DNA of 64,000 nt from Gammaproteobacteria bacterium (GTDB lineage Bacteria > Pseudomonadota > Gammaproteobacteria > QZLD01), in contig JAWSVA010000014.1 of assembly GCA_033852155.1 (NCBI GenBank), positions 101,393 to 165,392 on the forward strand, given 5' to 3'. Below are positions 18,976 to 35,362 of this stretch, one piece after another. The notes under the pieces were generated by a model. That model made no database searches, was not told where the DNA came from, and was given only the letters and a program-made list of their open reading frames with translations. The translations under genes were made by a program, and so were the position numbers. The stretch's first letter is position 1. Each line of letters begins with the position of its first letter.

Positions 18976-21900
18976 TTAGATAGAGTGTTTTTCAGTCGAG
19001 AAAATTTCTGCCAAAGATTCACCTTGTGCTAACACTCTGTCTGCTTCCAGTTTTGCTAAATCTGGTGGATAACCATAACGCATTAATATTTTCTTTACAG
19101 TCAACCTTAACTTAGCTCGTACATCATCTCTTTTACTCCAATCGACAGTTGCATTTTTTCTGATGACATCCACTATTGTATGAATCAATTCTTTCATCTT
19201 ATTATCATCTAAAAAGCTTGTAGATTTATTTTCGCTTAACACACTATAGAAAGCGTACTCTGCTGATGTTAGCCCAAGTTCTTCAGATTTATGATCTTCC
19301 AAACGCATATCTTTGGCTATTTCTGAAAGTTCTGCTAATACTTGAGCAGAATCTATTTGATTGTTGTGATAACGCTTCACAACAGACTCCAGCATTTCAG
19401 AAAACTTTTTACCTTGCACTAAGTTCTTAGTTTTTCGAATACTAACTTCATCACTTAATAACTTTTTCAGTAATTCAAAAGCAACATGCTTTTGTTGCAT
19501 ATTTTTAACTTCCAATAAAAACTCATTAGATAAAATACTAACTGAAGGACTTTCAATTCCTGCGGCTTCAAATATGTCAATCACACCTTCACTTGAAAGC
19601 GCATCATCCACAATTTGTTTAATGGCAGTTTCTACTTCATAATCTGATTTTACTCCATTGCCTGTAAACTTATTTAGTCGTGCTTTTATCGCTTGAAAGA
19701 AGGATATTTCATCTTTTATTGCTTCTGCATCAGGACTTGGTATTGACATCGCAAAAAGTTTTGATAATAGGGTTACTTCTTTTAAGAAACGTTCCTTTAG
19801 TCTTATATCTGAAAGAATAAAATTTTGAGCACCTAATAGAACTTGTAATTTTTGAGCAGTATCAACGTTAAAGTAGGCTTTATAATCAAAACTGTTAAAC
19901 ATCTGTTCTATGATTTCAAACTTCTCTTTCATTCCTGCAATTGCTTCTTTAATATCTACAACTGGTTCTCCTTCACCACCACTTTGCAAATATGTTGCCA
20001 TTGCATTTCTAAGATCTTGACCAACGCCAAAATAATCAACTACTAATCCACCTGGTTTGTCTTTGTAAACTCTATTTACTCTTGCAATGGCTTGCATCAG
20101 ATTATGACCTTGCATTTTTTTATCTACATACATTGTATGTGTGCTTGGAGCATCAAAACCTGTGAGCCACATATCTCGAACAATTACTAATTTCAGATCG
20201 TCATTAGTATCTTTCATTCGAGTGGCTAAATCTTTCCTTTGTTGTTTGGTGGTATGATGAGGTTGAAATAATTCTGGGTCGTCAGACGAACTTGTCATTA
20301 TTACCTTTATCATTCCTTTATCTAAATCATCATTGTGCCATTCAGGCTTTAGAGCAATAATTTCATTGTATAATTTCACACAAATATTTCGTGTCATTCC
20401 TACAATCATTGCTTTACCTTCAAACACCTCTTGTCTTGCTTCAAAGTGCATTACAATATCTTTGGCAACATCTTTTAATCTGTCAGGATGCCCAACAACT
20501 GCATCAATAGTTGTTGTTTTCTTTTTTGCATTTTCTAGCTGCTCTTCTGTTGCATCAGCAATATTATTTATTTCATCGTCTAATGCTTTAGCTGTTTTTT
20601 CATTCAGTTTAATTTTTACTAAACGAGATTCATAACTAATAGGAACTGTTGCCCCATCATCTACAGCCTGTTTTATATCATAAACATCAATATAATTGCC
20701 AAAAACGGCAGGTGTAGATTTGTCTTCTTTTTCTATGGGTGTACCCGTGAAACCTATGTATGAAGCATTAGGCAAAGCGTCACGCAAATATTTTGCATTC
20801 CCATAGCGGGTTTCCATCCCCTTCTCTGTTTCTACCTCTCGAGCAGTAAAGCCATATTGACTGCGGTGGGCTTCATCTGCTACTACAACAATATTTGTTC
20901 GGTCTGATAAGGTTTCATAAACATTGCCTTCTGCTGGAGCAAATTTTTGAATGGTTGTAAATATTACACCACCGCCCGAAACTTTTAACAGTTCTTTTAT
21001 GTGTACTCTATTATTTGCTTGAACTGGTGTTTGGCGTAAAAGCCCAACACAATTTCCAAATATACCAAAAAGTTGGTCGTCTAAATCATTTCTATCAGTA
21101 AGCATTACAATGGTTGGGTTTCCCATCTGTGGATGCGTAATAATTTGTCCACTATAAAAAACCATTGATAAAGATTTACCCGAACCCTGCGTATGCCAAA
21201 TTACACCAATTTTACGGTCACCATCTTTTGAATGAGTTGCTCTTAAGGTTTGCTTAACTGCTTTTTGGACAGAATAGTATTGATGGTAGGCTGCAACTTT
21301 TTTAATTTTTACTTGTGAAATCAAACCTGTTTTTTCGTCTTTCTTTTCTTCTTGTTCAAATACAGTGCAATAGCGAATTAACTCTATCAATGTTTTTTTA
21401 TTGAGCAAATGTTCGGTTAGAATTTGTAATTCTGTTCTAACTTCTCCTTTTATATTTTCGGGAGATTTCCAAGAAAGGTATCGTGTAAAAGGGGAAGAAA
21501 CACTTGATGTTGATGCATCTATTCCGTCTGAAATTACACAAATAGCATTGTAGTAAAAAATACTTGGAACTGCCTTCTTATAATTTTGAATTTGTGTATA
21601 AGCCTTTCTTAGTGTGGCTTTTTCATCTGAGGCAGATTTAAGCTCAATAAAAACCAAAGGTAAGCCATTTATAAAAATGACCACATCAAATCTTTTCTCG
21701 TTGTTGTTTTCTTTTACTACCAATTGGTTAACTACCCAAAAACTGTTGTTTTCAGGATTTTCAATATCCAACAAGTTTACATTAATTCCTTTTGTCCTTC
21801 CGTCTTTGGTATATTCTACCGTTACACCATTGGTAAGTAATGTATGGAAACGTTCGTTGTTTTCCATTACATCTTCTGTACCGAGATTAATGACCTTTTG

Positions 21901-22113
21901 GTAGGCCTCTACTCGTGCAGATTCGGGGAGTGTGGAATTCAGTTTTTTAAGAGACTGTTTAAAATGGTTTTCTAAGATTATTGAAGATAAGTTTTCACGC
22001 TGTGGATTATCGCTAATTGGTGAAATATCTGTACCGTTAAAATACGTATAACCTTGACTAACTAATTGGACAATTAAAGATTGTTCTATGGTATTTTCGT
22101 TTAATGTATTCAT
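18976..22113 (-). CDS. hsdR: Type I restriction enzyme R subunit (HsdR)
   Basis: 1045 aa. HsdR N-terminal nuclease region, SF2 helicase motifs (GSGKS Walker A, DEAHRSQ motif II), C-terminal HsdR-C region. Last gene of the hsdM-hsdS-x-hsdR operon. Confidence 0.95.
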   Translation of the reverse strand: MNTLNENTIEQSLIVQLVSQGYTYFNGTDISPISDNPQRENLSSIILENHFKQSLKKLNSTLPESARVEAYQKVINLGTEDVMENNERFHTLLTNGVTVEYTKDGRTKGINVNLLDIENPENNSFWVVNQLVVKENNNEKRFDVVIFINGLPLVFIELKSASDEKATLRKAYTQIQNYKKAVPSIFYYNAICVISDGIDASTSSVSSPFTRYLSWKSPENIKGEVRTELQILTEHLLNKKTLIELIRYCTVFEQEEKKDEKTGLISQVKIKKVAAYHQYYSVQKAVKQTLRATHSKDGDRKIGVIWHTQGSGKSLSMVFYSGQIITHPQMGNPTIVMLTDRNDLDDQLFGIFGNCVGLLRQTPVQANNRVHIKELLKVSGGGVIFTTIQKFAPAEGNVYETLSDRTNIVVVADEAHRSQYGFTAREVETEKGMETRYGNAKYLRDALPNASYIGFTGTPIEKEDKSTPAVFGNYIDVYDIKQAVDDGATVPISYESRLVKIKLNEKTAKALDDEINNIADATEEQLENAKKKTTTIDAVVGHPDRLKDVAKDIVMHFEARQEVFEGKAMIVGMTRNICVKLYNEIIALKPEWHNDDLDKGMIKVIMTSSSDDPELFQPHHTTKQQRKDLATRMKDTNDDLKLVIVRDMWLTGFDAPSTHTMYVDKKMQGHNLMQAIARVNRVYKDKPGGLVVDYFGVGQDLRNAMATYLQSGGEGEPVVDIKEAIAGMKEKFEIIEQMFNSFDYKAYFNVDTAQKLQVLLGAQNFILSDIRLKERFLKEVTLLSKLFAMSIPSPDAEAIKDEISFFQAIKARLNKFTGNGVKSDYEVETAIKQIVDDALSSEGVIDIFEAAGIESPSVSILSNEFLLEVKNMQQKHVAFELLKKLLSDEVSIRKTKNLVQGKKFSEMLESVVKRYHNNQIDSAQVLAELSEIAKDMRLEDHKSEELGLTSAEYAFYSVLSENKSTSFLDDNKMKELIHTIVDVIRKNATVDWSKRDDVRAKLRLTVKKILMRYGYPPDLAKLEADRVLAQGESLAEIFSTEKHSI

Positions 22114-22118
22114 AGGCC

Positions 22119-23129
22119 TTATTCAAAATTATCCTTTAAAAAATCAGCAACATCATTCTCTACAAGTTCACTTTTTGCTTTATAGAGTGTGCCTATAAAT
22201 TCTTTTACATCTTCATCTTTAATAATCCACCTGATCATTGCATTTGAAAATGATGCATATAAAATTTTAAGAATTTCATCATCAGAAAAGTAATTGATAA
22301 AAGGTAATAATTGCTCAATTGCATTATGGGTAGAGTCAAAATTTCCTGAAATGATAAGTTGTTCGATATTTTTCAAATAAAGTTCAGGTTTTGAAGTGCT
22401 TATAATTTCACCAGAATCTACTTCAATAATATATTCTTCACCTTCAGTTTTGATAAGTACATTTTGATTGTCATCAATGTTATGCCAGTATTCAACAATA
22501 TTGTCTTTAGTGATAACTACATCAAGTTCAGCATTTACTTTTTCTATAAAATAATCATCAAAGAATTGTGACACGCTTTTTTGTTTAAATTGTTCGTAGG
22601 TTTCTATTACAATAATATTGTGATGATTATTTAAAGCTTCTTTTAACCGACCATCTTTTGCACAAACAAACACATTCTTATTTGGTATTTCTTGTAGATA
22701 TTCAAGAACAGAGAAATAAATTAAAGCATCTTTAAAGCCTTTGTCGGTATTGTCTCCACTTTCAAAAGGGGCTTTTTTGTTTAAAGCTAATTCTTTAATT
22801 TGAGGAAGAACATCATTGTTTTTTAAATCGATCACCTCAAAAGGAATAGATTCGTCATCAAATAGTTTTTGAATATAATCCTCAATACTAAAAGCTTTTG
22901 TATCATCTTCATTAACACCAATTAACCCATGAAATGGGTTTGTTAAAAATTTATCTTTATTACTCGATAATTTTATTATTTTTTGCCTTTTAATTTCTTG
23001 AATTACCGTTTCTGGTATTACAATATCAGCATCTTGTAGAAAGCGTTCTAACTCCACTCTGCCACCTAAAAAATTATTGGCATTAGTGTTATGTACAATA
23101 TTGGTATCAAAGATTACTTTTTCTTTCAT
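22119..23129 (-). CDS. PIN-like domain protein (DUF4935-like) embedded between hsdS and hsdR; candidate defence accessory gene
   Basis: N-terminus KVIFDTNIV (PIN Asp-1 motif), TVIQEIK, TDKGFKDALIYFS and CAKDGRL supply the remaining acidic residues in PIN-like spacing. The C-terminal ~170 aa is an unknown domain. Overlaps hsdS (ATGA) and lies 6 nt from hsdR. Confidence 0.6.
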   Translation of the reverse strand: MKEKVIFDTNIVHNTNANNFLGGRVELERFLQDADIVIPETVIQEIKRQKIIKLSSNKDKFLTNPFHGLIGVNEDDTKAFSIEDYIQKLFDDESIPFEVIDLKNNDVLPQIKELALNKKAPFESGDNTDKGFKDALIYFSVLEYLQEIPNKNVFVCAKDGRLKEALNNHHNIIVIETYEQFKQKSVSQFFDDYFIEKVNAELDVVITKDNIVEYWHNIDDNQNVLIKTEGEEYIIEVDSGEIISTSKPELYLKNIEQLIISGNFDSTHNAIEQLLPFINYFSDDEILKILYASFSNAMIRWIIKDEDVKEFIGTLYKAKSELVENDVADFLKDNFE

Positions 23130-24322
23130 ACTTCATTCTCTTTAAAATCATTAACACGTAATTTCCCACTCATTAATTTTGGTAATAATGTATCTCGTGC
23201 TTGTTTTAGGGTTTGGATTTGGGTTGCATTGTTAAATATTTTATTGAATATTGGTTTAACTAGTTCATCAAAGTTTTTCATTACTGACTCTGAAGGAATT
23301 AACGTTTCGTAGAATCTTAAAATATCTGTTTTCAAATTTACAAATACGCTTCCACTTCCTTGTTGAACTAACTTAGGTCTTATATCAAGAAACAGTAAGT
23401 AGAGGTATTCATTTGATACTTTTGAACTTGGGAAATGCATCCAACCATCATGGACACATGTATCAACAGCTAAAAATTTTGGCATTCCAGGTGTAGCACT
23501 ATTTGACAAAACTATATCGCCTTTCTTTTTAAGTATTGTTTTTCTTAAACCTTCAACTTTTATATGCTCCTTTATATCAAATATATAAGGAGAGCTAGTT
23601 GCTGTAGCATCAGAAATTTTCAACCATCTATATCCACAATCTGAGATAAACTCTTTTATAGGCCGTGGTGAACCACCACGTTTTATTTCTGTCAAATCAC
23701 CAATTTTCCCAACTCTCCATCCATCAGGAAATTCATCACCAATTTGGTATTTACCAAACCACTCTTTAAAAATAGTTTGTGCGGTGGTTTCTAGGGTTTT
23801 GTTTTGGGCTTGTAGGAGTTCTATCTTATCATCAAAAGATGTTAGTACGGCGGCTATGGCTTTTTGTTCTGGTAATGATGGAAGATTAATTTCAATATTC
23901 TCTAATTGATTTTTTGAAATATTTGGAAAAGTAGAACCTGTTGCTTCCGCTAATAAACCTTGTAATTTATAATCTAAAATACCTTTTATGTATTTTCTAA
24001 ATTCCACCCCTTCTTTGTGTCTAACACTTGCAAGTCCTCTACCAATAACATATTGTTGATTAGACCAATTCATTCTGCCTGTTGTAGAGCCTCTAACACA
24101 AAAAAGTAAATCGTTTATTTTGCTTATCTTTTTAGGAGCAGTGGTAAACTGTACAGGGATTGGTGATGTTACTCCAAATTCAGTAGGTCCATTCAATAGT
24201 GGTAATCCCGTTCCATTCTCATTACAAGTATCACCTTTGGGAGATTGTCCCATAATTATCTCAGAAACCTCTCCCAGGGTCGTTTTCACCCAACCATTTG
24301 GTATATTATTCGCAACATTCAT
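23126..24322 (-). CDS. hsdS: Type I restriction-modification specificity subunit (HsdS), two target-recognition domains
   Basis: 398 aa with duplicated TRD/conserved-region layout (LPSLPEQKAIAAVL central repeat, C-terminal LKQARDTLLPKLMSG); overlaps hsdM. Confidence 0.9.
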   Translation of the reverse strand: MNVANNIPNGWVKTTLGEVSEIIMGQSPKGDTCNENGTGLPLLNGPTEFGVTSPIPVQFTTAPKKISKINDLLFCVRGSTTGRMNWSNQQYVIGRGLASVRHKEGVEFRKYIKGILDYKLQGLLAEATGSTFPNISKNQLENIEINLPSLPEQKAIAAVLTSFDDKIELLQAQNKTLETTAQTIFKEWFGKYQIGDEFPDGWRVGKIGDLTEIKRGGSPRPIKEFISDCGYRWLKISDATATSSPYIFDIKEHIKVEGLRKTILKKKGDIVLSNSATPGMPKFLAVDTCVHDGWMHFPSSKVSNEYLYLLFLDIRPKLVQQGSGSVFVNLKTDILRFYETLIPSESVMKNFDELVKPIFNKIFNNATQIQTLKQARDTLLPKLMSGKLRVNDFKENEV

Positions 24323-25827
24323 AAACTAAACCCAATTTTAGAAAGTTGCGTTTCAATTTCTAGGTTAAGCTCTGTTTCTTTAGCTATTTGTTGTTTTAAA
24401 ATGGTTGTTAAATCCTTCATTTTGATCTCAAAATGTATTCCGTCATCTTCTTCATCAGGTATACCAACATATCGTCCAGGTGTTAAAATGTGAGAGTGCT
24501 TTTCGATGTCTTCAACTGTGGCGGATTTACAGAAGCCTTTAACGTTTTCGTAGTTTTCACCTGTACGCCAATTATGGTAAGTATCGGTGATTTTATTAAT
24601 ATCATCATCTGCTAAATCACGGTGTACACGGTCTTTCATAAAACCCATTTCAGAAGCATCAATAAATAACACCTCTTTGCTGTGGCTGTTTTTCTCTCTA
24701 CGCAAAAACCAAATACAAGCAGGAATACCTGTGTTGTAAAATAGTTGTTTTGGTAAAGCTACAATACATTCTATCAGATCATTTTCTACTAAATTTTTAC
24801 GAATATCGCCTTCACCAGATGTATTGGAACTTAAAGAACCATTAGACAAAACAGTAGCCATTACACCTTTTGGTGCTAAGTGATACAACATATGCTGCAT
24901 CCAACCAAAATTGGCGTTTCCGTTTGGTGGTGTGCCATATTTCCAACGTCCATCTTCTTGTAGAATATCAACGCCCCATTCTTTTTGGTTAAAAGGGGGA
25001 TTGGCTAAAATATAATCGGCTTTTAAATCTGGATGAGCATCTTTTAAGAAAGAACCTTCTGTATTCCAGGCCACAAATTTTGAGTTGATATTACGAATTG
25101 CCAAGTTCATTCTAGAAAGCTTCCAAGTAGTTTGGTTACTCTCTTGTCCGTAAACAGTAATATCTTTTATGCTACCGCTGTGTTCGGTTACAAACTTCTC
25201 ACTCATTACAAACATTCCACCACTACCACTTGCAGGATCATAAACTCTGCCTTTATATGGTTCTATCATTTCTACCATTAGCTTTACAATGGCTTTAGGT
25301 GTGTAGAATTGTCCGCCCTTTTTCCCTTCGGCATTGGCAAATTCGCCCAAGAAATATTCATATACGCGACCAAAAAGGTCTTTTGAGTTTTCGTTTTCTG
25401 CTTGGAGTTCAGTATTGGAGATTAGGTCGATAAGTTCGCCCAAAGAAGTTTTATCTAAGTTGGCTTTCCCATAAACCTGTGGTAGAACATTTTTAAGCTC
25501 TTTATTCTCTTTTTCTATGGCTTCCATTGCTTCATCAATGGATTGCCCGACAGTCGGCAGTTTTGCTTGAGAGTGGATATGGCTCCAACGCGCTAGTTTA
25601 GGTACAAAAAAGACATTCTCGGCTATGTATTCATCTCTATCTTCTGGGCTGCTCCATTCGTCAGCTTCCAATTTATTGTAGAGTTCGGTAAATGATTCAG
25701 AAATATATTTAAGAAATACCAAACCAAGTACTACGTGTTTGTATTCAGCAGCATCAATATTCTTTCTGAGTTTATCCGCTGCTTTAAATAGTTTTTGTTC
25801 AAAACTACTATTATCTATTTTTGCCAC
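24319..25827 (-). CDS. hsdM: Type I restriction-modification N6-adenine DNA methyltransferase subunit (HsdM)
   Basis: HsdM N-terminal domain. AdoMet motif I (VYDPASGSGGMF) and catalytic motif IV LANPPFN. Confidence 0.95.
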   Translation of the reverse strand: MAKIDNSSFEQKLFKAADKLRKNIDAAEYKHVVLGLVFLKYISESFTELYNKLEADEWSSPEDRDEYIAENVFFVPKLARWSHIHSQAKLPTVGQSIDEAMEAIEKENKELKNVLPQVYGKANLDKTSLGELIDLISNTELQAENENSKDLFGRVYEYFLGEFANAEGKKGGQFYTPKAIVKLMVEMIEPYKGRVYDPASGSGGMFVMSEKFVTEHSGSIKDITVYGQESNQTTWKLSRMNLAIRNINSKFVAWNTEGSFLKDAHPDLKADYILANPPFNQKEWGVDILQEDGRWKYGTPPNGNANFGWMQHMLYHLAPKGVMATVLSNGSLSSNTSGEGDIRKNLVENDLIECIVALPKQLFYNTGIPACIWFLRREKNSHSKEVLFIDASEMGFMKDRVHRDLADDDINKITDTYHNWRTGENYENVKGFCKSATVEDIEKHSHILTPGRYVGIPDEEDDGIHFEIKMKDLTTILKQQIAKETELNLEIETQLSKIGFSL

Positions 25828-26412
25828 TTATATTTCCTTTATCGTGCTTATTTTTTACTTTGCAACTATTGCAATATACAAACGGAAAACCGCTCTCAGC
25901 TTGGAGTCCAGTGCCGAAGGCATGATGGTTAACTGCATGAAACTAAGCCTATATGAGAGTTTACAACGGCTCTAGTGATTTTAAATACACGCTGCAACGA
26001 TATCCTTCTCTATATATGTAATCAGGAAAAGGTTCATTTTGAGTTTCTATGAATTCTGTGATGTTCTTACTCATGCTGCTTACTTATAACTAATATTTAG
26101 GGACGATAGTTAAGTCTTAAATCAAGAACAGCTCTACATTGAAGCTTGATTCAATCATCCATGATAATCGGTTTGTAGTATTACACATTTCTTAGTTATC
26201 GACTAGGATACTCTACCCGCTTGATAGCAGGTGTTGTTAGTTTTGCTAAAGAATATGCAGTTTCAATAACCTGATTCAAAAAACGTTGATTGTACAGACG
26301 ACAATAAATCTAGCTGGACGCTATTTTCAGTTTACACATTGATTTTAAAGGGAGGAATTGAATTTTACTGGAAGTGTTTAGAGTTGTTTGGAGGTATTTT
26401 TGGAGGTATTTA

Positions 26413-26500
26413 TGGCGGACAGGGAGGGATTCGAACCCTCGGTACGTTACCGTACACACACTTTCCAGGCGTGCTCTTTCGGCCACTCAGACACCTGTCC
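26413..26500 (-). tRNA. tRNA-Ser (anticodon GGA), class II with long variable arm, CCA encoded
   Basis: Reverse complement folds as GGACAGG-TG-...-CACGC-CU[GGA]AA-GUGUG-long variable arm (UGUACGGUAACGUACC)-GAGGG-TTCGAAT-CCCTC-CCTGTCC-G-CCA. Its 3' end faces the hsd block. Confidence 0.9.
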
Positions 26501-26762: not shown

Positions 26763-27458
26763 ATGGTTCTTCAATATGATTGTTCATCAAATGATGTTAT
26801 TTCATTGATTGAAAATGCAAATAAGGATGAGAGATCTTGTTTGCTACGCTCATTAGGGATTGAAGAGGACATCACAAAGGATTTTAGTGAGACCATATTC
26901 AGCACACTAAGCAGGGAAGCTAGTCATTCTATAGGGAGGTTGGTGAGAAGGGGAAACGGAATTCCTTACTGGATGGTTGTTCATAACACAGCTAAATTTC
27001 TTAAAGCCAATTCCTATGAACGCGACGAAAGTTGGGTTCAGCGTAATTACCAAATTCTGGAGCGTAATATTTTTGATATGGTATTTCGCACTTTTTTATA
27101 CTCAATTCCAGAAGAAAAACGTGAAAAATTGGAAGATAGTTTATCAACAGTTGGCAACACTCTATTACGCTCCACGGATAAGAATAACTCCCAAGTTGCT
27201 GCTGTCTCATCTCTTGGGTTGGGCAGTACATCACTACTAGCGATTATCGGCAGTTCTATTGGTCCAACTATCGCACCTCTTTGGCTTTTAGCATTGAGTG
27301 CGCTCACGGTTAAAAGGTATAAGGCCTCTAAATATATAAAAATAATTCCATTTATATCTGTCATTGCATCAATACGCCAAAGGCTTGAATCAAATGGCAT
27401 GGTTGATAGCGACTACCACTTGGAACAAGAACAAATCCAAGTTAGATCTGGTTTTTGA
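26763..27458 (+). CDS. Hypothetical protein with C-terminal pair of TM helices (231 aa)
   Basis: Soluble N-terminal ~150 aa, then LGLGSTSLLAIIGSSIGPTIAPLWLLALSALTV (two hydrophobic helices). No recognisable family. Confidence 0.5.
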   Translation: MVLQYDCSSNDVISLIENANKDERSCLLRSLGIEEDITKDFSETIFSTLSREASHSIGRLVRRGNGIPYWMVVHNTAKFLKANSYERDESWVQRNYQILERNIFDMVFRTFLYSIPEEKREKLEDSLSTVGNTLLRSTDKNNSQVAAVSSLGLGSTSLLAIIGSSIGPTIAPLWLLALSALTVKRYKASKYIKIIPFISVIASIRQRLESNGMVDSDYHLEQEQIQVRSGF

Positions 27459-27470
27459 TTAAGGAATAAT

Positions 27471-28175
27471 ATGCAATTAGCAAACTTACGCGTCCCTAAA
27501 TTTAATAATGATTCAATTCGAGAAGAGTTACGCGGGGTATTACTTGAAAAAGCACCAATAATGATGCAGAACAGTAAAAATTTAGCGGATGAGTTGCTAG
27601 GATGTATTGGCGTAATGGTTGGTGCGGATGGAGAGCTATGTAATATAATTGCCCGCCAAATTAGAAGAAACTTTCATAAATCATGGTCACAACTATGTGC
27701 AGAAGAGTGGATGATGTTTGATGAATTACAGCCATCTTCATCTAAATATTTAAGGGATATAATAAAGGTAAATATTAAGAATAAATTTGCCAAGTTTTTT
27801 GTAGTTCAGGATAACTTCTATTCACCTATTAAGAATAACTTTTTATGCCACATAATCGATACCCTATGTGGAGCTGTAGGCAGCATAGAGACAAGATTTG
27901 GAGGGGATACCCCTCTGATTGAGACTATAAATTATATTAAAAATGGGGATATTCGCGAAGCGGTAAATCAGTTATTACTTGCGTATGATTTATATGGAGA
28001 GGTTTTAGAAACAGAGTGTTGCAAAGAGCAGCTCATCGACGAAATTGATTATCAAATCAAAGCAACAGATGAACTGCAGCAGCATGAATCAGTTTTCGCA
28101 CAGGGAGCTTCAGTGCGATATAGGAAGACCTTGAAGGATCTGAGGTCAAGACTTGAAGTCTTGCAGGGAAATTAA
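27471..28175 (+). CDS. Hypothetical protein (234 aa), operonic with the preceding gene
   Basis: 12-nt gap from the upstream ORF; no recognisable domain; several Cys (CAEEW, CHIIDTLCGAVG, ECCKEQ). Confidence 0.5.
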   Translation: MQLANLRVPKFNNDSIREELRGVLLEKAPIMMQNSKNLADELLGCIGVMVGADGELCNIIARQIRRNFHKSWSQLCAEEWMMFDELQPSSSKYLRDIIKVNIKNKFAKFFVVQDNFYSPIKNNFLCHIIDTLCGAVGSIETRFGGDTPLIETINYIKNGDIREAVNQLLLAYDLYGEVLETECCKEQLIDEIDYQIKATDELQQHESVFAQGASVRYRKTLKDLRSRLEVLQGN

Positions 28176-28227: not shown

Positions 28228-28267
28228 ACGGCCTGTACTTACTCTTAAAGAGACTAGTGCAGGCCGT
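28228..28267. terminator. Hairpin between convergent genes (putative bidirectional terminator)
   Basis: ACGGCCTG ... CAGGCCGT 8-bp stem with an internal CTCTTaAAGAG sub-hairpin; T-rich flank. Confidence 0.4.
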
Positions 28268-28306: not shown

Positions 28307-28963
28307 TTAAAAAGAAAAGTTAACCAATCCATTGGTGAAAATATAGATTCCAAATACAATTAATATTCCGCCACTTATGCTATTAACAGCTATGGGATGC
28401 TTATTTATCACCTGAATCTTTTGACGGAAGAATTGGGTTGAGTATCCTGCAATTAGAATTGGGATAGAGAAACCAAGAGCGTAAATTGCCAACAGAATAA
28501 CCCCGTAGTATAAGCTCCCCTCTGCTGCTACTTTGGCAAATACACTAGATAACGTTGGTCCAACACATGGAATCCATATTATTCCTAAAGAGAGTCCTAG
28601 AAAAAAACCCGAGAAATACCCTGAGCTTTTTGTTTGTATATTTGATAAAAAACCCAATTTTATAAATGGATTTACCCCAATAATCATTAGAAAACCAAAT
28701 AAGCTAATTACTATACCGGAAGCTTTTTCTAAAAAAACAGTATTCCCCATCAATAGATGGAAAAAAACACTGCTAATAACCCCCATGATAATAAAACTAA
28801 TGGATAACCCAGCCACTATTAAAAGTGGGCGGTGTTTGCTGTCTTCACCTGTTCCTGTCGCGATTATAGGAAGAACAGGCAATACACAGGGAGAAGCTAC
28901 ACTCACCGCTCCAGCACCAAAAGCAAATAAAAGATCAATTATTTGAATACCCATTTTACTCAA
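28307..28963 (-). CDS. ccdA: CcdA/DsbD-family thiol:disulfide interchange membrane protein (cytochrome c biogenesis CcdA-like)
   Basis: Six TM helices with the two conserved membrane Cys motifs ASPCVLPVLP and WIPCVGPTLS. Confidence 0.85.
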   Translation of the reverse strand: MSKMGIQIIDLLFAFGAGAVSVASPCVLPVLPIIATGTGEDSKHRPLLIVAGLSISFIIMGVISSVFFHLLMGNTVFLEKASGIVISLFGFLMIIGVNPFIKLGFLSNIQTKSSGYFSGFFLGLSLGIIWIPCVGPTLSSVFAKVAAEGSLYYGVILLAIYALGFSIPILIAGYSTQFFRQKIQVINKHPIAVNSISGGILIVFGIYIFTNGLVNFSF

Positions 28964-28971
28964 TATCTCCT

Positions 28972-29394
28972 TTATAAGGATTTAAGAGCTGTAAGAATCT
29001 CATCTGCATCTCTTATTCCAGGAGGGAAAGATTTTGATATCTCACCGTTTGAATCAAGAAGGATTAAAGATGGTAATCTGCGAACACCATACCGATTAAA
29101 GGTAAACCTGCTCATAGCATCTGTTGTAGCAATATAGTTAACATCTGCCATATCTGAAATTGTAGCCATACTCTGCTTTATAATTTTATCCTGCTGTTGG
29201 CATGGAGATCCATTTGGGTTAAGGAAAAACAGCAGTGTACCCTTGCTTTGTTTTACTTCGCTAACTGCGGCCTGCTCTACTTTGGGCTGTGCTTCTTTAG
29301 CTGCTTTTGTAGTTGATTTATTATCATCTTGCGCAAATAAAGTAGTTGTAGTTAAGGCCAAAAACAATATGGCCAATATTCTTATAGCTTTCAT
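28972..29394 (-). CDS. Periplasmic thioredoxin-fold protein (non-canonical single-Cys SPC motif)
   Basis: Signal peptide MKAIRILAILFLALTTTTLFA. Thioredoxin-like length. Motif LLFFLNPNGSPCQQQ sits at the position of the CxxC motif. Located 9 nt downstream of ccdA. Confidence 0.5.
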   Translation of the reverse strand: MKAIRILAILFLALTTTTLFAQDDNKSTTKAAKEAQPKVEQAAVSEVKQSKGTLLFFLNPNGSPCQQQDKIIKQSMATISDMADVNYIATTDAMSRFTFNRYGVRRLPSLILLDSNGEISKSFPPGIRDADEILTALKSL

Positions 29395-29559
29395 AGGTTT
29401 CCTTCTTGTTTTTTAGTTTTATCAAGCAACATTATGTAACAATATCACTTATTAAAATTAATTTCTATAGCAAGTTAGTGGGTTATTAGGTTAATGGGGG
29501 AATAATCAAACCCTGTATCCCGCAAATGTATGTGGTTTCTCTCTAAACGTTAATCCAGA

Positions 29560-30396
29560 TTAAAGTGTAATTCTCATACCAGAAAAGCCAGGATTCACAA
29601 TCGATCCAAGTTCTTCTTGCAGCCTCCGCACCACTTCAAACCCTGTGCAATGACAAGGTACTATTTTATTAACTTTATATTTTCTAAATGCCTCGATTGT
29701 ATGATTCACTCTTTCATCTGAAGCTGCATTAAGGTGCAGCCCACCAATCACCATATAGATGTTTTTATCAAACAGTTGGCTTACATAATCAAGGGTATTA
29801 ATTACCCCTGAATGACAGCAGCCAGTTATTAACACTATTCCTAAGTCGGTTTTAATACAAAGAGATTGGTCATCAAAAATCAGATCTTTGTTTAACTTCT
29901 TATCATCAAGATAAAAAGGTCCGCCAGTATCTTCTAATCTATTTATTCGCGGAATCTCACCTGTGGTAAAAATATTGTCTGCAATTTCCATAGGTTGTTT
30001 CGATAGAAAGATCTGATCTTGTGATAACTTTTCAATTGCTCTTTTTTGGTCACAACTTATAGAGATATTCTTAGGAGATTTTCCTGCATGGATACTAAAA
30101 CGTTGCTGTACAATATCTGGATGAGCATAAACCATTATAGAGTCTGCTCCATTTACAATATCTTTTATTGACCCGGTATGGTCGTAATGACCATGACTTA
30201 ATACCAGTTTAGTTATCTGATTTAACGAAAGTCCAAGGCGGGACAAATTCTTTAAAAATATCTCACCTTGCCCGCAATCAAAGATAATGGTCTCATCATC
30301 ATTTTCGATACATGCAGAAAAACCATGTTCTGATTTAAAGCCCTCTGCAGCTTCATTATCAACAACAATACTGACCTTAAAATTATCTGCATTCAT
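29560..30396 (-). CDS. MBL-fold metallo-hydrolase
   Basis: HGHYDHTG metal-binding motif (HxHxDH), 278 aa. Confidence 0.8.
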   Translation of the reverse strand: MNADNFKVSIVVDNEAAEGFKSEHGFSACIENDDETIIFDCGQGEIFLKNLSRLGLSLNQITKLVLSHGHYDHTGSIKDIVNGADSIMVYAHPDIVQQRFSIHAGKSPKNISISCDQKRAIEKLSQDQIFLSKQPMEIADNIFTTGEIPRINRLEDTGGPFYLDDKKLNKDLIFDDQSLCIKTDLGIVLITGCCHSGVINTLDYVSQLFDKNIYMVIGGLHLNAASDERVNHTIEAFRKYKVNKIVPCHCTGFEVVRRLQEELGSIVNPGFSGMRITL

Positions 30397-30519
30397 TTTC
30401 TCAAGAACCTATGTTTCTTCACTGCTATCCGAGGAAATCCAAAAACAAGATGACTAAGCCTTTCGGCCTTGGTTTATCTTGAAAATTAAGTGTAATAATA
30501 ACTAAGCCTGTTAGTAATA

Positions 30520-30858
30520 CTAATGGTCACAACCATTAGCGCCAGATGTTAGCGTTTTATCCATAAGAGACTTGACTAAATTTTCTGGGGTTTTAATTGG
30601 TGCTCCAACAATAACATTGATATTTTTAGCCGAGAATAACTCCTGTGCCTTTTGACCCATTCCTCCGGCAATTATTGTATTAACATTTCTCTCTGCTAAC
30701 CAACGAGGAAGCAGTCCTGGTTCATGCGGTGGAGCATCAACCATTTGCTCATTAATTATTAGATCATTATCTGTATCTACTTCGATCAAGGCGAATTGCT
30801 TACAGTGACCAAAATGGATACTCAACTGCCCTTCATGTACTGGTATTGCTACTATCAT
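30520..30858 (-). CDS. NifB/NifX/NafY-like 'dinitrogenase iron-molybdenum cofactor' domain protein
   Basis: MIVAIPVHEGQLSIHFGHCKQFALIEV ... IIAGGMG is the canonical layout of this small domain family (PF02579-like). Confidence 0.75.
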   Translation of the reverse strand: MIVAIPVHEGQLSIHFGHCKQFALIEVDTDNDLIINEQMVDAPPHEPGLLPRWLAERNVNTIIAGGMGQKAQELFSAKNINVIVGAPIKTPENLVKSLMDKTLTSGANGCDH

Positions 30859-30891
30859 AATTATCTCCTATTTGATAATTCTCGGTTTCAA

Positions 30892-31761
30892 TTAATTAAT
30901 CCAGGTTGAAATGTGAAACCAAATATCCTCTATCTCTTTTTTGGCTTTACATTTTTTAAATTCAACTATGCTTTTTCCCGCCATTTGCGCTTGATTCATC
31001 TCCTCTGTAGTTGATATTTTCCCTACATATTTAGCATCTGATGCAAAACATATTTTCTTTATTACCGTAGTGTTATCTCGGTTTATATCAAAACGATTTA
31101 TTACAACAAATGTCAAAATCTTAAAATGGCTGGTTAGTTCTAAAACTCTCTTTAAATCATGTATTCCAGATACCGTTGGCTCTGTAATAACTACTACACA
31201 ATCAGAACCTGTAATTGACGCTATGACAGGACATCCTATTCCCGGCGGCCCATCAGCAAGGATAAGGTCAGCATTGGTTCGTTGTGCGGCTTTCTTGGCT
31301 TCGGATCTAACCAAAGTTACCAGTCGGCCTGAGTTTTCTGCAGCTATACCTAGCTTTGCATGCACCATTGGCCCAAATCTTGTTGATGATGAATACCACT
31401 CTCCACAGTTACGTGGATTAAATTTAATCGCATTATTTGGGCACACGTGCACACAAACTCCGCACCCTTCACATAATGCAGGATCTATTGCTAATCCATC
31501 ATCAGTTGTTTTTATTGCATTGAATTTACAGTGCTGTACGCACTTATTACATCCATTGCATTCATAAGGAACTATTAAGGCTAAATTGCCACTTACAAAT
31601 TGGGTTGTCTGCTGTATTTCAGGCTGCATAAGAATATGTAGATCTGATGCATCCACATCACAATCAACAAGCACAGAGTTTTTTGCAAGTGCAGCGAATG
31701 ATGCAGTTAAGCTGGTTTTACCTGTACCACCCTTACCGCTTAGTACTATTATTTCCTTCAT
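30892..31761 (-). CDS. MinD/ParA-superfamily P-loop ATPase with inserted 2x[4Fe-4S] ferredoxin domain (COG1149-type)
   Basis: Deviant Walker A LSGKGGTGKTS. Two CxxCxxCxxxCP clusters (CNGCNKCVQHC ... CEGCGVCVHVCP). Confidence 0.85.
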   Translation of the reverse strand: MKEIIVLSGKGGTGKTSLTASFAALAKNSVLVDCDVDASDLHILMQPEIQQTTQFVSGNLALIVPYECNGCNKCVQHCKFNAIKTTDDGLAIDPALCEGCGVCVHVCPNNAIKFNPRNCGEWYSSSTRFGPMVHAKLGIAAENSGRLVTLVRSEAKKAAQRTNADLILADGPPGIGCPVIASITGSDCVVVITEPTVSGIHDLKRVLELTSHFKILTFVVINRFDINRDNTTVIKKICFASDAKYVGKISTTEEMNQAQMAGKSIVEFKKCKAKKEIEDIWFHISTWIN

Positions 31762-32618
31762 TGGTTTGCACCATTTTGCATACAGATATGATGCAACACA
31801 CCTTTAAGGCCACTCTCAATCTCTGGAATTTCTGGCAGAATATTTTTCCCGATAGAATATTCTTTTGCTACTTCTGGCATTTGATTGATTTTCAGTAAAA
31901 CTTCGATTTTTTGTTGTTCACAATAATCAATAACACCGTTATCACCGCTGTCTGCCTTATTGATTATCACCCCAAAAGGCAGCTTAACTTCTCTTAAAGT
32001 AGCAACTGCAATTTTAAGATCATGCAGACCAAATGGTGTTGGCTCGGTAACTAAAATCACATAGTCTGCACCATCAACAGCTGTAATCATCGGGCACGAT
32101 GTACCGGGTGGACAATCAATAATATTTAACTTAAAGGTATCAATTCTATTTTTAACAGCTCGAATCAAAGGGGGAGCCATCGTTTGACCAACATCCAATA
32201 CCCCTGAAACTGTTAGTATTATTTTATAGGTATTGGATAAAACCACCCCTGTTTCTATCGAGCCAATTCTTTCCTTTTTATATGAGATTGCACCGTTAGG
32301 GCAAACTATCTGGCAGCCACCACAGCTATGACACATCTCATCCATAATCATAAGCTTTCCAGCCAAACTTAGCATTGCATTGAATTGACAAAACTCTTCA
32401 CATTTACCGCAGTTATTACACTTTGTTAAATCTATTTGTGGCACTTCTCTTGAGACAACACTATCTCCCACTTTTTCTGGATTAAGAAAAAGTTTTCCAT
32501 TTGGTTCCTCTACATCGCAATCAAGATAAGTGGTATTACCTTCTGCTATTAAAGCAAGCGCTGTAGAGATAGTTGTTTTTCCTGTACCACCTTTTCCTGA
32601 TGCTATTGCAATGTTCAA
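31758..32618 (-). CDS. Second MinD-type ATPase with ferredoxin insert (paralogue of the preceding gene)
   Basis: IASGKGGTGKTT Walker A. CNNCGKCEEFC ... CHSCGGCQIVCP clusters. ATGA overlap with the downstream paralogue. Confidence 0.85.
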   Translation of the reverse strand: MNIAIASGKGGTGKTTISTALALIAEGNTTYLDCDVEEPNGKLFLNPEKVGDSVVSREVPQIDLTKCNNCGKCEEFCQFNAMLSLAGKLMIMDEMCHSCGGCQIVCPNGAISYKKERIGSIETGVVLSNTYKIILTVSGVLDVGQTMAPPLIRAVKNRIDTFKLNIIDCPPGTSCPMITAVDGADYVILVTEPTPFGLHDLKIAVATLREVKLPFGVIINKADSGDNGVIDYCEQQKIEVLLKINQMPEVAKEYSIGKNILPEIPEIESGLKGVLHHICMQNGANQ

Positions 32619-32658
32619 TTTAAACCCCTAGTTAAACTTATCCGGCTTTTGCTGATTA

Positions 32659-33021
32659 CTATTCTTGCATCAACTGTAATTTTCCTGACTTATATGAAGA
32701 GATAACTTCTTTAATTGTTGCCTCTTCGCTATGAAAAACTTTTAGCGCAGATTCATTTAAAACCTTAAAAGCCTTAGGGCCACAGTGACCGGATATCAGC
32801 ACTTGAGCACCACTGTCTATTACAGTTTTTGCAGCTTGTATTCCTGCACCTTGGGCGAGGTTCAGATTGATACTGTTATCTACAGCATGAAAAACACCTT
32901 GCTGAAGATCATAAATAATAAACTTTTGAGCACGACCAAATCTTGGATCTAATTGTGAATCAAGGTTTTCACCACATGAGGTTATTGCTATGAGCATTTT
33001 GTTCTCCGTTTTCTTGAACAT
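32659..33021 (-). CDS. NifB/NifX-like FeMo-cofactor-binding-domain protein
   Basis: MLIAITSCGENLDSQLDPRFGRAQKFIIYDL ... VLISGHCGPKAFKVL matches the same small-domain family. Confidence 0.75.
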   Translation of the reverse strand: MFKKTENKMLIAITSCGENLDSQLDPRFGRAQKFIIYDLQQGVFHAVDNSINLNLAQGAGIQAAKTVIDSGAQVLISGHCGPKAFKVLNESALKVFHSEEATIKEVISSYKSGKLQLMQE

Positions 33022-33398
33022 CTGTTTGCCTGATTTATGTCTAACTGATTGCGCTTAGGACAAAGCTTTGCTGGCATAAAAAAACTTTCATCTTTTTCTA
33101 ATGAACCATTCAACCAAGCATTACTAACTTTATTAACATCTCCGCATATAGAAGGTACTACGCTGATATTAAACTCACTCGCTAATATCAATGCTTGATT
33201 TGATATGGCGCCGCAAATAATATGTGTAACTTCAAATTGCCGAATATTCTCAAATTTCATATCAAGCGTATCTGCCTCTATATCTATCGACTCTGTCTTC
33301 GTATGACCGCTTTCATACAACTCATATATACGAGCAATCTTTGCTACGTCGAAAACAGGTGAAATTCTAAGGTTCCATACTGGTATTAACATTTTCAT
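32988..33398 (-). CDS. NifX-like domain protein with Cys/basic C-terminal tail
   Basis: MLIPVWNLRISPVFDVAKIARIYEL has a family-like N-terminus. C-terminal CPKRNQLDINQANRCSRKRRTKCS. AAGGA ribosome-binding site. First gene of the cluster. Confidence 0.5.
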   Translation of the reverse strand: MKMLIPVWNLRISPVFDVAKIARIYELYESGHTKTESIDIEADTLDMKFENIRQFEVTHIICGAISNQALILASEFNISVVPSICGDVNKVSNAWLNGSLEKDESFFMPAKLCPKRNQLDINQANRCSRKRRTKCS

Positions 33399-33579
33399 AA
33401 TCTATTCCTTAATACATATATAACAACATTCATGCCACGTTTTGCAAACGTCGAAAAGCCAGCCATATATCTTTGATTGTTTTAGGAATTTAATGAATCA
33501 GATAAAGTGAGGTCGAGTTTTACATATAACGAATAATTGCAATACTGCAATCATTAACGCAATCAATTGATGCAACTAT

Positions 33580-33635
33580 GCAGTCATACAATCGTGCAGT
33601 CATACAATCGTGCAGTGTGTATGTGTGTGTATGTG
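33580..33635. repeat. Perfect 16-bp tandem direct repeat (GCAGTCATACAATCGT x2) followed by a (GTGTGTAT)-type simple repeat, in the activator/cluster intergenic region
   Basis: Read directly: gcagtcatacaatcgt gcagtcatacaatcgt gcagtgtgtatgtgtgtgtatgtg. Confidence 0.7.
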
Positions 33636-33702
33636 ATTTTAAAAGTTACAAAAGAGTTGTGAAAATAGAGTGATGAGAAATATTAGGCAAATAAGGGACT
33701 AG

Positions 33703-35073
33703 CTAAGAATCAATAGAATATTTAATCATCTTTCTATAAAGAGTTGTTTTATGAACTCCAAGGCTTTTAGCCGTTTTTGTACGGCTATAGTTATTAGCCT
33801 GTAAGGCTTGGATAATTAAAGCTTTTTCATTTAGTTCGACAGTAGATTTAATTCCAGAGCTTTGCGCATCCATATCACTATCACTGGTTTTTTGTTTATC
33901 TACAGATGCGAGCAAATCGGCAGGAAGCAGGGTTTTAGTAAACTCATTCGAAGTAGACAACACTGTTGCACGCTCAACTATGTTTTCCAGCTCTCTAATA
34001 TTTCCTTGCCAGTCATAATCAAGCAAAATCGAATACACTTCAGGCGCTATAGTTTTAATTTTCTTATTCTGAAGTTGATTATATTTTTTTAGGAAATGCT
34101 CCATAAGGTATGGGATATCTTCTTTTCTATCACGCAGTGGAGGCACCTCTAAAGAGATTACGTTAATCCTATAAAATAGATCTTGTCTGAATTGTCCATT
34201 AGCAACCATCTCACCAAGATCACGATGTGTTGCCGCAATAATCCGCGCATTTGATTTTTCTGTCTTAGTGGAACCAAGGGGTTCAAATGTCCCCTCTTGT
34301 AAAACCCTTAATAATCTTACTTGCATAGCAGGGCTAATCTCACCAATCTCATCTAAGAACAAAGTTCCCTTACCGGCAAGCGAGAATCTACCTAGCTTAT
34401 TATTATAAGCTCCTGTAAAAGCGCCTTTTTTATAACCAAAAAGTTCTGATTCAAGTAAGGTATCGGGCAAAGCTCCGCAGTTTATTGCCATAAAAGGTTC
34501 GGATGAATTAAGACTATTTTCATGGATAGATCTAGCTAGTAGCTCTTTTCCAGTACCTGTTTCACCTGTAATTAAGACCGTACTTGGGCTTACCGAAACC
34601 GCCTTCGCAGTATCAATCAAGCCTGACATTATTGGGCTGTGAGTAATGAAGCGACCAAAACTGTATGACTCTTTAAGCTCTGACTTTAAGCTTTCAACCT
34701 CACTAAGATCTCTGAATGTCTCTGCTCCACCGATTATCTCACCATCTTTATTACGCAAAACAGCAGTAGAAAGACTGATTGGTACCTTACTCCCAGCGGA
34801 GTTAATGATATATCCAGTTTTATTTATAATTGGTTTTTTTGATTTAAAGGTTTTTCGTAAAGCGCAGGATGATTCACACATGTCAGAGCAGAAGACTTCA
34901 GAACAAAGCCTTCCAATTGCATGTTCTTTAGGTATCCCGGTGATTGAAACAGCTGCACGATTAAAAGATGTAATCCTCCAGTCTTCATCGACTGTAAAAA
35001 CACCCTCAGAGATACTCTCCAGAATCGCTCCGGTAAATGTATCCAGATCATGCGCTAAATCAAAAGTTTTCAA
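33703..35073 (-). CDS. Sigma-54-dependent transcriptional activator (PAS sensor - AAA+ - Fis-type HTH)
   Basis: N-terminal PAS domain. GETGTGKELLARSIH Walker A, GAFTGA motif (KKGAFTGAY), R-finger region. C-terminal HTH (AKSLGVHKTTLYRKM). Confidence 0.9.
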   Translation of the reverse strand: MKTFDLAHDLDTFTGAILESISEGVFTVDEDWRITSFNRAAVSITGIPKEHAIGRLCSEVFCSDMCESSCALRKTFKSKKPIINKTGYIINSAGSKVPISLSTAVLRNKDGEIIGGAETFRDLSEVESLKSELKESYSFGRFITHSPIMSGLIDTAKAVSVSPSTVLITGETGTGKELLARSIHENSLNSSEPFMAINCGALPDTLLESELFGYKKGAFTGAYNNKLGRFSLAGKGTLFLDEIGEISPAMQVRLLRVLQEGTFEPLGSTKTEKSNARIIAATHRDLGEMVANGQFRQDLFYRINVISLEVPPLRDRKEDIPYLMEHFLKKYNQLQNKKIKTIAPEVYSILLDYDWQGNIRELENIVERATVLSTSNEFTKTLLPADLLASVDKQKTSDSDMDAQSSGIKSTVELNEKALIIQALQANNYSRTKTAKSLGVHKTTLYRKMIKYSIDS

Positions 35074-35362
35074 GACTCTGCCTTAGATTGAAACAATATC
35101 ACATATCATTTAATGATAATTAGCCAACATTTACAAGCTTCAAATCATGTACTCATTACGCTCTCATATAACCAAGACATTAAAAAAGGCGGTTAAACCG
35201 CCTTTTTTAAATCAGCTACTTAAAAAGTAATTTGAAAACGTCATGAGCGAAGATTAGTCAAGGCAAAAACTGATTAAAAAACGGAGCTTACTAGTAGTAA
35301 ATGAGTAATTTTAATCAGTTTTTAACGCCGAATAAGCAAGCGCAATAGTTTTCAAAACCTTT

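Follow-up and report, generated by a model that had tools for sequence, protein, structure and literature searches.

The present analysis concerns a stretch of 64,000 nucleotides (hereafter the window) from a low-GC gammaproteobacterium (contig JAWSVA010000014.1) and, within it, the region 28307-35073, whose nine open reading frames (ORFs) are co-directional and all located on the minus strand. We conclude that this region is an orp gene cluster, encoding an ORange Protein (ORP) complex, under the control of its cognate OrpR-type activator. The identity and the regulation of the cluster are well supported, and the explanation as a whole appears probable. The ORP complex and its operons were described in Desulfovibrio vulgaris (DvH) about 15 years ago. 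The module itself is therefore already named and partly characterized, and both the Desulfovibrio cluster and its regulator OrpR have been studied (PMC6345978, PMC8359166, PMC3897727). An earlier description of the region made without database searches (the sequence-only reading) had reported eight co-directional genes behind a sigma-54 activator with PAS, AAA+ and HTH domains, in agreement with both the ORF list and Pfam. It had also called the genes a recurrent module of unassigned function; the recurrence holds (80 loci, see below), but the module is assigned, as the orp cluster with OrpR.

The identification stems from a 112-aa protein (30520-30858) carrying a Nitro_FeMo-Co, or Di-Nase, domain (8e-20). 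This protein matches the NCBIfam family MrpORP over positions 265-365 of 365 (E 4.7e-36), which pointed to the ORP complex of Desulfovibrio. It shows 50% identity, over its full length and without any gap, to residues 375-487 of DVU2109, the MrpORP of DvH (sequence taken from the supplement of PMC6345978). All three published motifs are present, i.e. HFGHC, PPHEPGxxP (here PPHEPGLLP) and a C-terminal CDH, and the protein is a stand-alone equivalent of the C-terminal domain of MrpORP (Orp9). A second small protein (32659-32997) belongs to PF02579 (9e-21) and has as best PDB match 2WFB, the orange protein of D. gigas (E 2.4e-20, residues 9-116); it is the orthologue of Orp8. Its ORF is listed to 33021 (120 aa), but its true start is likely 32997 (112 aa), where an ATG preceded by a GGAG Shine-Dalgarno sequence overlaps the stop codon of the upstream gene, orfA. 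In DvH, Orp8 is the orange protein, Orp9 joins a Di-Nase domain to an Mrp/NBP35 P-loop, Orp3 and Orp4 are paralogues with two [4Fe-4S] motifs each, and the adjacent PAS-AAA+-HTH activator OrpR controls the expression of the genes from sigma-54 promoters (PMC6345978). The window likewise harbors two paralogous MinD-ferredoxin (MinD-Fdx) ATPase genes of the Orp3/Orp4 type, MinD-Fdx1 (31758-32618) and MinD-Fdx2 (30892-31761), the parallel being drawn by description only. Their products, which are 32% identical to each other, are P-loop proteins of the MinD/Mrp class (CbiA/ParA in Pfam) with two [4Fe-4S] ferredoxin motifs (Fer4) inserted after the Walker A region. Pfam thus agrees with the two MinD-type ATPases with inserted 2x[4Fe-4S] domains, as well as with the metallo-beta-lactamase (MBL) and CcdA proteins, of the sequence-only reading.

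The third small protein, encoded by orfA (32988-33398, 136 aa), gives by itself no match in Pfam, NCBIfam or PDB. However, 26 of 30 homologues from related loci match PF02579, and the family profile retrieves solved Di-Nase folds (1T3V with an E-value of 1.8e-8, then 1O13, 2YX6, 1RDU, 2QTD, 1EO1 and 2WFB). Hence, two of the small proteins belong directly to PF02579/IPR003731, and OrfA is a divergent member of the Nitro_FeMo-Co fold assigned at the family level. Its family is characterized by a conserved CGAIS motif and by an MPGC(C) motif that precedes a cationic tail rich in Arg and Gly. In the window protein MPAKLC replaces MPGCC, and the tail is short, moderately cationic and contains a cysteine.

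The three proteins had been presented as NifB/NifX-like, a description that is right for the fold and wrong for the identity: NCBIfam gives 18.6 bits for the NifX model (cut-off 112) and 15.4 for the NifB model (cut-off 344), and no radical-SAM NifB domain was found in the cluster proteins. These scores, together with the lack of nif genes in the window, uphold the accompanying statement that none of the genes is a nitrogenase component. It could still be argued that the genes carry out a NifB/NifX/NafY-like cofactor maturation for a nitrogenase or nitrogenase-like enzyme encoded elsewhere, since the Nitro_FeMo-Co fold is common to both and NifA is among the generic AAA+ matches of the activator. 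This reading was rejected as extremely improbable on the basis of the NifX and NifB scores and of the absence of nif genes both from the window and, as recurrent neighbors, from the 80 neighborhoods examined below; furthermore, the best matches are ORP and MrpORP.

The regulator (33703-35073) combines a PAS domain, an AAA+ domain with a GAFTGA motif (Sigma54_activat, 5e-68) and a Fis-type HTH (HTH_8). It shares about 60% identity with its homologues in at least six phyla (Geobacter, Nitrospirota, Planctomycetota, Sumerlaeota, Desulfobacterota, Photobacterium and Vibrio). In an alignment of 14 of these sequences, also spanning at least six phyla, residues C57, C66 and C70 of the PAS domain are invariant and E59 is conserved in at least 90%. 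In OrpR, the ligands of the redox-sensing [4Fe-4S] cluster are C52, C61, C65 and D/E54 (PMC8359166). The spacing of C57/E59/C66/C70 is identical to that of these ligands, as judged from the published residue positions rather than from a direct alignment with DVU2106. In addition, the window and the Madre6 metagenome-assembled genome (MAG) have FCSDMCE where the other homologues have Lys or Arg (FKSSMCE); this additional cysteine, C62, could replace E59 as fourth Fe-S ligand.

A sigma-54 type -24/-12 promoter, TGGCATGAATGTTGT (33423-33437, minus strand), lies in the 305 bp that separate the activator gene from orfA, about 25 nt upstream of the ATG of the latter. It is the sole match to TGGCAYG-N4-TTGY in the 64 kb (0.16 expected) and is found at the same position in an alignment of four relatives. 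A relaxed scan (TGGCAC-N5-TTGCA, 2 mismatches) was uninformative, with 15 matches against 19 expected, and it gave no second promoter inside the cluster. Upstream of the promoter lie two candidate activating sites of the form TGCA-N4-TGCA, 33 bp apart: site 1 (33571-33582) is conserved in five taxa and site 2 (33538-33549) is ATTGCAGTATTGCAAT, a perfect 16-bp inverted repeat. These are two of the four such sites in the window. Between them and the promoter, AATCAAAGATATA (33466-33478, minus strand) has a WATCAR-like core, is conserved in five taxa and represents a possible IHF site; the orp promoters of DvH require IHF (PMC3897727). An alignment with the same genus, with a gammaproteobacterial MAG, with a third relative and with Photobacterium marinum places promoter, palindromes and WATCAR-like box in register. 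More generally, upstream of orfA homologues from 34 non-redundant loci of many phyla, the -24/-12 motif occurs at 12 loci (about 0.14 in shuffled sequences) and the palindrome at nine (0.13 in shuffles), the maximum in any shuffle being 2.

Half of upstream site 1 is duplicated by a perfect 16-bp tandem repeat (33579-33635, unit TGCAGTCATACAATCG, 2.4 copies), to which a (GTGTGTATGT)x2 repeat is adjacent. Both are missing from the 87%-identical relative L007, which belongs to the same genus, suggesting that the activator-binding region was recently expanded in the window.

Several points weigh against the identification or against the role proposed below. Domain architecture, motif spacing and published descriptions are the basis of the orthology to Orp3/4/7 and OrpR. 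Neither Pfam nor NCBIfam detects in the cluster the Mrp/NBP35 P-loop domain that has been proposed to mature Orp3/4 in DvH. A small [2Fe-2S] Orp5-like gene also appears to be absent, and the intergenic gaps are too short for another gene. As for regulation, rpoN is absent from the window and the -12 element is TTGT, not TTGC. The DvH palindrome GGGCGYRTTTTGCGCCC was not found, the TGCA-N4-TGCA pair standing at the equivalent position. Moreover, DvH OrpR has GAFTDA (PMC4641369) instead of the GAFTGA found here, which makes the DvH protein a somewhat divergent family member. The ORP literature itself proposes a role in cell division. Finally, we know of no orp cluster for which an in vivo biochemical function has been shown.

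The grouping of these genes is not due to chance. When one genome per GTDB species was scanned with the MinD-Fdx alignment as query, 80 loci (L009-L088) were obtained from archaea and from bacteria of well over ten phyla, including Psychromonas, Propionivibrio and the Madre6 gammaproteobacterial MAG. Gene presence was scored by tblastn with the window proteins within 8 kb of the MinD pair, 31 of the loci having full flanks. The two ATPase genes are adjacent at all 80 loci (31/31 with full flanks), and ORP accompanies them at 69 (31/31). The Orp9-type Di-Nase is present at 54 loci (24/31), OrfA at 31 (14/31), the MBL protein at 28 (12/31) and an OrpR-like activator at 22 (12/31); DUF89 is found at 12 of the 31 full-flank loci. 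Among the Di-Nase copies of related loci, stand-alone proteins (about 112 aa) number 47 and fusions to a Walker-A Mrp domain 11, indicating that the form of the window is common and that of DvH rarer.

De novo clustering of all ORFs adjacent to the 80 loci revealed further recurrent neighbors: DUF89/ARMT1 (25-27 loci), DUF5320 (19), a SAM methyltransferase (16), a 4HBT thioesterase with an N-terminal CxxC (15-17), a radical SAM protein and DUF134 (15 each), a Zn-ribbon protein (12), DnaJ and classical thioredoxins (8 each), a CoA-disulfide reductase-rhodanese (CoADR-rhodanese, 7) and a peroxiredoxin (6). The MPGC tail motif of the OrfA family has a look-alike in the N-terminal MPRGDGTGP of DUF5320. 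In these 80 neighborhoods, no nif gene and no respiratory or catalytic metalloenzyme is recurrent; the redox enzyme that the ATPases were expected to accompany elsewhere thus failed to appear. In the window too, the rest of the 64 kb encodes ordinary gammaproteobacterial functions, with no nif gene and no obvious client enzyme. The cluster looks degraded in one relative, L008 (2012-6070, GCA_033852075.1, 60-67% identical), which has no orfA, a Di-Nase protein shortened to 89 aa, and an activator present as two pieces of 104 aa (PAS) and 311 aa (AAA+). Beside this apparently decayed cluster, the other strand encodes a cysteine desulfurase, TusA, a YeeE-type sulfur transporter and a Se/S carrier.

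What the complex does is less clear than what it is. MinD-Fdx1 carries the deviant Walker A motif GKGGTGKT and the motif DCPPGTSCP, and no solved structure in PDB has the MinD-Fdx architecture. Its AlphaFold2 model (pLDDT 87) has as nearest folds archaeal MinD, ATPase-type HypB, FleN, ApbC and NifH/BchL, which match about equally well; hence the model does not separate a role in spatial organization from that of a metallochaperone. The former would make the ORP complex a cell-division or spatial-organization system, in which the two MinD-like ATPases of anaerobically growing cells would determine where the septum or a polar structure is placed, the metal centers doing no more than tuning this activity to the redox state. 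DvH cells with inactivated OrpR show morphological defects, the annotation of the orp genes gives a putative involvement in cell division, MrpORP has a polar location, and Orp3 and Orp4 have MinD-like C-terminal amphipathic helices (PMC8359166, PMC6345978, PMC4641369). The archaeal MinD proteins among the nearest solved folds of MinD-Fdx1 point the same way. However, the matches to HypB, ApbC and NifH are equally good, three of the five core products are Di-Nase domains that bind clusters, no minC/minE-like or fts gene is recurrent beside the cluster at the 80 loci, and the DvH phenotype could be indirect. We therefore regard a primary role in cell division as unlikely.

Our own proposal is that the ORP complex is an ATP-driven device that assembles, holds or hands over metal-sulfur clusters under reducing conditions, and not a component of nitrogenase or respiration. 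The activator gene is cut off from the neighboring ppsA gene by a strong terminator. Judging from the ligand spacing, its PAS domain would hold a redox-sensitive [4Fe-4S] cluster on C57, C66 and C70, with E59 or C62 as possible fourth ligand. The activator would bind the two TGCA-N4-TGCA palindromes present about 110 and 140 bp upstream of the -24/-12 promoter. By analogy with DvH genetics, it would remodel RNA polymerase in its sigma-54 form at low redox potential and thereby switch on the genes for OrfA, ORP, MinD-Fdx1, MinD-Fdx2 and Di-Nase; read-through is a candidate route for the expression of the MBL gene and possibly of the thioredoxin-like and CcdA genes. As suggested by work on DvH, the products would form a cytoplasmic metalloprotein complex. 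In this complex, a heterodimer of MinD/Mrp-class ATPases with four [4Fe-4S] clusters would work with the three small Di-Nase proteins, which would hold metal-sulfur clusters non-covalently: Mo/W-Cu-S for ORP and [3Fe-4S] for the Orp9-type protein, OrfA contributing a cationic tail. MrpORP transfers Fe-S clusters to Orp3/Orp4 in vitro, its Di-Nase domain binding [3Fe-4S] (PMC6345978), and IssA, a relative of the Di-Nase proteins, stores Fe-S (PMC5524996). This biochemical role is a tentative proposal, credible without yet being probable. The sequence-only reading had suggested the insertion or repair of a metallocluster, which would be in line with what the ORP literature proposes.

The same binding properties could instead serve storage. 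The module might, as IssA does with thioferrate, store or else detoxify iron/sulfide or thiomolybdate-type metal sulfides, buffering them when sulfide is abundant rather than delivering clusters to a target. ORP is close to MTH1175 of the IssA clade, 1EO1 (MTH1175) being its third-best PDB match (2.6e-14; PMC5524996), and it binds a Mo-Cu sulfide cluster non-covalently (PMC6345978). The MPGC(C) motif and Arg/Gly-rich cationic tail of the OrfA family recall IssA-type tails, and sulfur and thiol redox genes recur nearby (CoADR-rhodanese at 7 loci, thioredoxins at 8, peroxiredoxin at 6). However, the short, moderately cationic tail of the window OrfA, with MPAKLC for MPGCC, fits poorly, storage would leave the two ATPases with ferredoxin domains unexplained, and no particle or storage phenotype has been reported for ORP. 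Pure storage is thus an improbable alternative to the ATP-driven handling of clusters.

Downstream of the five core genes, the cluster continues with three genes whose membership has to be weighed separately. The first one (29560-30396) encodes an MBL-fold metallo-hydrolase of the TM1679 type (Lactamase_B, 44.4 bits for a cut-off of 22.7; motifs HGHYDH and CHCTG; PDB matches 3H3E at 1.5e-39 and 2P4Z at 1e-35). Present at 28 of the 80 loci, MBL is a recurrent accessory gene of orp clusters. The second (28972-29394, 140 aa) encodes a secreted protein with an apparent Sec signal peptide, as read by eye. All its thioredoxin-type Pfam matches are under the gathering scores, and the best PDB E-value is 0.0085. 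Its assignment to the thioredoxin fold is therefore a putative one, based on consistent weak matches and a retained cis-Pro. The active site is NGSPC (within NPNGSPCQQQD) instead of WCGPC, keeping the second cysteine only. The third gene encodes a thiol:disulfide membrane transporter of the CcdA/DsbD type (DsbD_TM, 46.3 bits for a cut-off of 27.1), with the motifs SPCVLP and IPCVGP. It extends over 28307-28954, the ATG at 28954 being a more likely start than the listed one (28963); this start and that of ORP at 32997 agree with the gene calls on identical Logan contigs.

Do these genes belong to the same unit? The core is tightly spaced: orfA and ORP overlap, the two MinD-Fdx genes overlap by 4 nt and the remaining spacers are 33-40 bp. 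The tail is looser, with 123 bp between Di-Nase and MBL and 165 bp between MBL and the thioredoxin-like gene. A hairpin followed by UAUUUGUU (28228-28267, minus strand, dG -21 kcal/mol, z -3.7) lies 3' of CcdA, has a U-rich tail and is likely the terminator at the 3' end of the unit. One alternative is that two or three independent units abut here, namely the five-gene orp core, MBL, and a periplasmic thioredoxin-like/CcdA pair with its own promoter and an unrelated function. Besides the wide spacers, this would account for the absence of the window-type thioredoxin-like and CcdA genes from all 80 loci (and from the 31 with full flanks), and for the cluster stopping at MBL in the nearest outgroup, the Madre6 MAG. 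Within the MBL-thioredoxin spacer (29395-29559), a block TAACCCAC..CTATAGAAAT..AATAAGTGATATTGTTACA is kept in L007 between diverged flanks and may be a promoter or operator for the pair. On the other hand, neither spacer contains a terminator-like structure or is unusually structured, MBL recurs near orp, and an Ignavibacteria locus has a thioredoxin and CcdA 3 kb from its orp genes. Separate units are accordingly possible but rather unlikely.

Further evidence against independence comes from metagenomes. L007, from the same genus, retains the pair, which is absent from the Madre6 MAG and Photobacterium. A metagenome scan with the thioredoxin-like protein retrieved two contigs of a distant, higher-GC lineage, L090 (1-3235) and L089 (FQKF010017748.1 and JACCEE012084430.1), the only other context found for the NPNGSPCQQQD protein. 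The homologues of both contigs are 39-42% identical and have an unchanged NPNGSPCQQQD, which in L090 extends to FFxNPNGSPCQQQD. In L090, DUF134, MBL (27% identical), 4HBT, the thioredoxin-like protein (39%) and CcdA (48%, with both cysteine motifs conserved) are encoded by co-directional genes with overlapping stops and starts. A DUF1847 gene lies on the opposite strand in this L090/L089 context. Since DUF134, MBL and 4HBT are recurrent at orp loci, the association of the thioredoxin-like/CcdA pair with orp-type accessory genes has arisen at least twice, an argument against a purely fortuitous adjacency.

Nevertheless, the pair is not part of the conserved orp module. The idea of a periplasmic thiol-disulfide pair holds for CcdA and is weakened for its partner, which lacks the nucleophilic cysteine. 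The electron supply across the membrane that had been suggested must be considered a conjecture, since the pair stands outside the conserved module, 165 bp from MBL. It is also conceivable, though doubtful, that in this uncultured gammaproteobacterial genus the ORP module acquired an envelope-facing arm made of MBL, the thioredoxin-like protein with its single invariant cysteine and CcdA, and that this occurred independently in the distant lineage of L089 and L090. If this arm is co-expressed with orp, the handling of metal-sulfur clusters in the cytoplasm would be coupled to thiol or persulfide chemistry in the periplasm. To our knowledge, no trans-envelope role has been proposed before for ORP.

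Upstream of the activator gene, the proximity of ppsA had seemed worthy of note. However, an intrinsic terminator with a 14-bp stem followed by a T run (35180-35210, minus strand) lies 3' of ppsA and separates it from the cluster, and we rejected a functional linkage for this reason. The order ppsR-ppsA-orp is kept in a sister genome, this synteny being limited to the same genus. The ppsA sequence assigns the organism to Gammaproteobacteria, its closest named matches being from Ectothiorhodospiraceae MAGs (77% identical). The cluster has the same GC content as its surroundings (36-38%), which gives no sign of a recent transfer. The host had been called unexpected and is so to a lesser extent than claimed: the cluster occurs in Photobacterium marinum, in a Psychromonas MAG and in another gammaproteobacterial MAG, and Vibrio sp. 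HA2012 has an activator homologue that is 60% identical.

Other parts of the window deserve mention. Type I restriction-modification genes (18976-26500) lie on the 3' side of a tRNA-Ser(GGA) gene (26413-26500, minus strand). They comprise a 1045-aa ORF that is presumably the restriction subunit (18976-22113), a neighboring PIN-domain ORF (22119-23129), a specificity subunit (23126-24322) and a methylase (24319-25827), the last two being assigned by visual inspection of the translations. On this side of the tRNA gene L007 has a phage-type integrase instead, which suggests a variable island there. Two plus-strand ORFs (26763-28175; 231 and 234 aa) without any Pfam match are convergent with CcdA and 88-91% conserved in L007. 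Farther away, a 1613-aa ORF (43089-50308) without NCBIfam match at 1e-10 overlaps the start of the gene for PbpC (penicillin-binding protein 1C), an arrangement that resembles the alpha-2-macroglobulin/PbpC pair. Finally, a radical SAM/SPASM peptide maturase is encoded at 56946-58334, TIGR04463 being its best NCBIfam match, under the cut-off.

Taken together, the data indicate that ORP genes, found in archaea and in bacteria of well over ten phyla, always form a self-contained metal-binding set under a conserved redox-sensing activator. The promoter architecture of OrpR targets, i.e. the TGCA-N4-TGCA pair with the -24/-12 element, is conserved across phyla. The layout known from DvH, with divergent operons and an MrpORP fusion, is not the usual one, and a single operon with a stand-alone Di-Nase is the common one. 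As variant features, the window cluster has a single operon, lacks an Mrp domain and includes an MBL gene with a rare thioredoxin-like/CcdA arm. A new, if small, lead is the link between orp, a single-cysteine periplasmic thioredoxin-like protein and CcdA. Moreover, the gammaproteobacterial hosts include the cultivable Photobacterium, and a Vibrio sp. carries an activator homologue; genetics may be easier in these than in sulfate reducers.

The closest known system is the orp cluster of DvH. Both have an orange protein, two paralogous MinD-type ATPases with two [4Fe-4S] motifs each, and a Di-Nase domain, the window protein being 50% identical to the C-terminus of Orp9 and sharing HFGHC, PPHEPG and CDH. 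Both also have an adjacent PAS-AAA+-HTH sigma-54 activator with the Cys/Glu ligand spacing of OrpR and, as predicted here, a -24/-12 promoter preceded by paired palindromes with an IHF-like site in between. They differ in several respects. In DvH, two divergent operons flank the regulator, whereas in the window all genes are co-directional downstream of it. The MrpORP fusion contrasts with a stand-alone Di-Nase without the Mrp/NBP35 half. The small Orp5 Fe-S gene has no apparent counterpart in the window cluster, which in turn adds MBL, thioredoxin-like and CcdA genes. The palindrome is GGGCGYRTTTTGCGCCC in one and TGCA-N4-TGCA in the other, and GAFTDA corresponds to GAFTGA. Furthermore, DvH is a sulfate reducer, and the host of the window is a low-GC gammaproteobacterium.

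Other comparisons concern parts of the cluster. The IssA/MTH1175-type proteins, involved in Fe-S storage in Pyrococcus furiosus, have the same IPR003731 fold as the window Di-Nase proteins, and the OrfA family also joins this fold to a Cys-containing, cationic Gly/Arg-rich tail. However, the window OrfA lacks a long aromatic/Gly tail, and its gene sits in an ATPase-containing operon under predicted sigma-54 control. As in CcdA-ResA and CcdA-CcmG pairs, a CcdA-type membrane protein with both conserved cysteines is encoded directly after a secreted thioredoxin-fold protein. Unlike in these systems, no cytochrome c maturation genes are found near the pair, and the partner has only the second cysteine of CXXC (NGSPC), so that the usual dithiol-disulfide relay cannot run in the same way. 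Lastly, the MinD-Fdx ATPases lack the CXXC bridging-cluster motif of Mrp/NBP35 and have an inserted 2x[4Fe-4S] domain. They share the deviant Walker A motif GKGGTGKT with the SIMIBI ATPases Mrp/NBP35/ApbC and CooC/HypB, MinD-Fdx1 has the DCPPGT switch motif in common with Mrp/NBP35, and its predicted fold matches ApbC and ATPase-type HypB.

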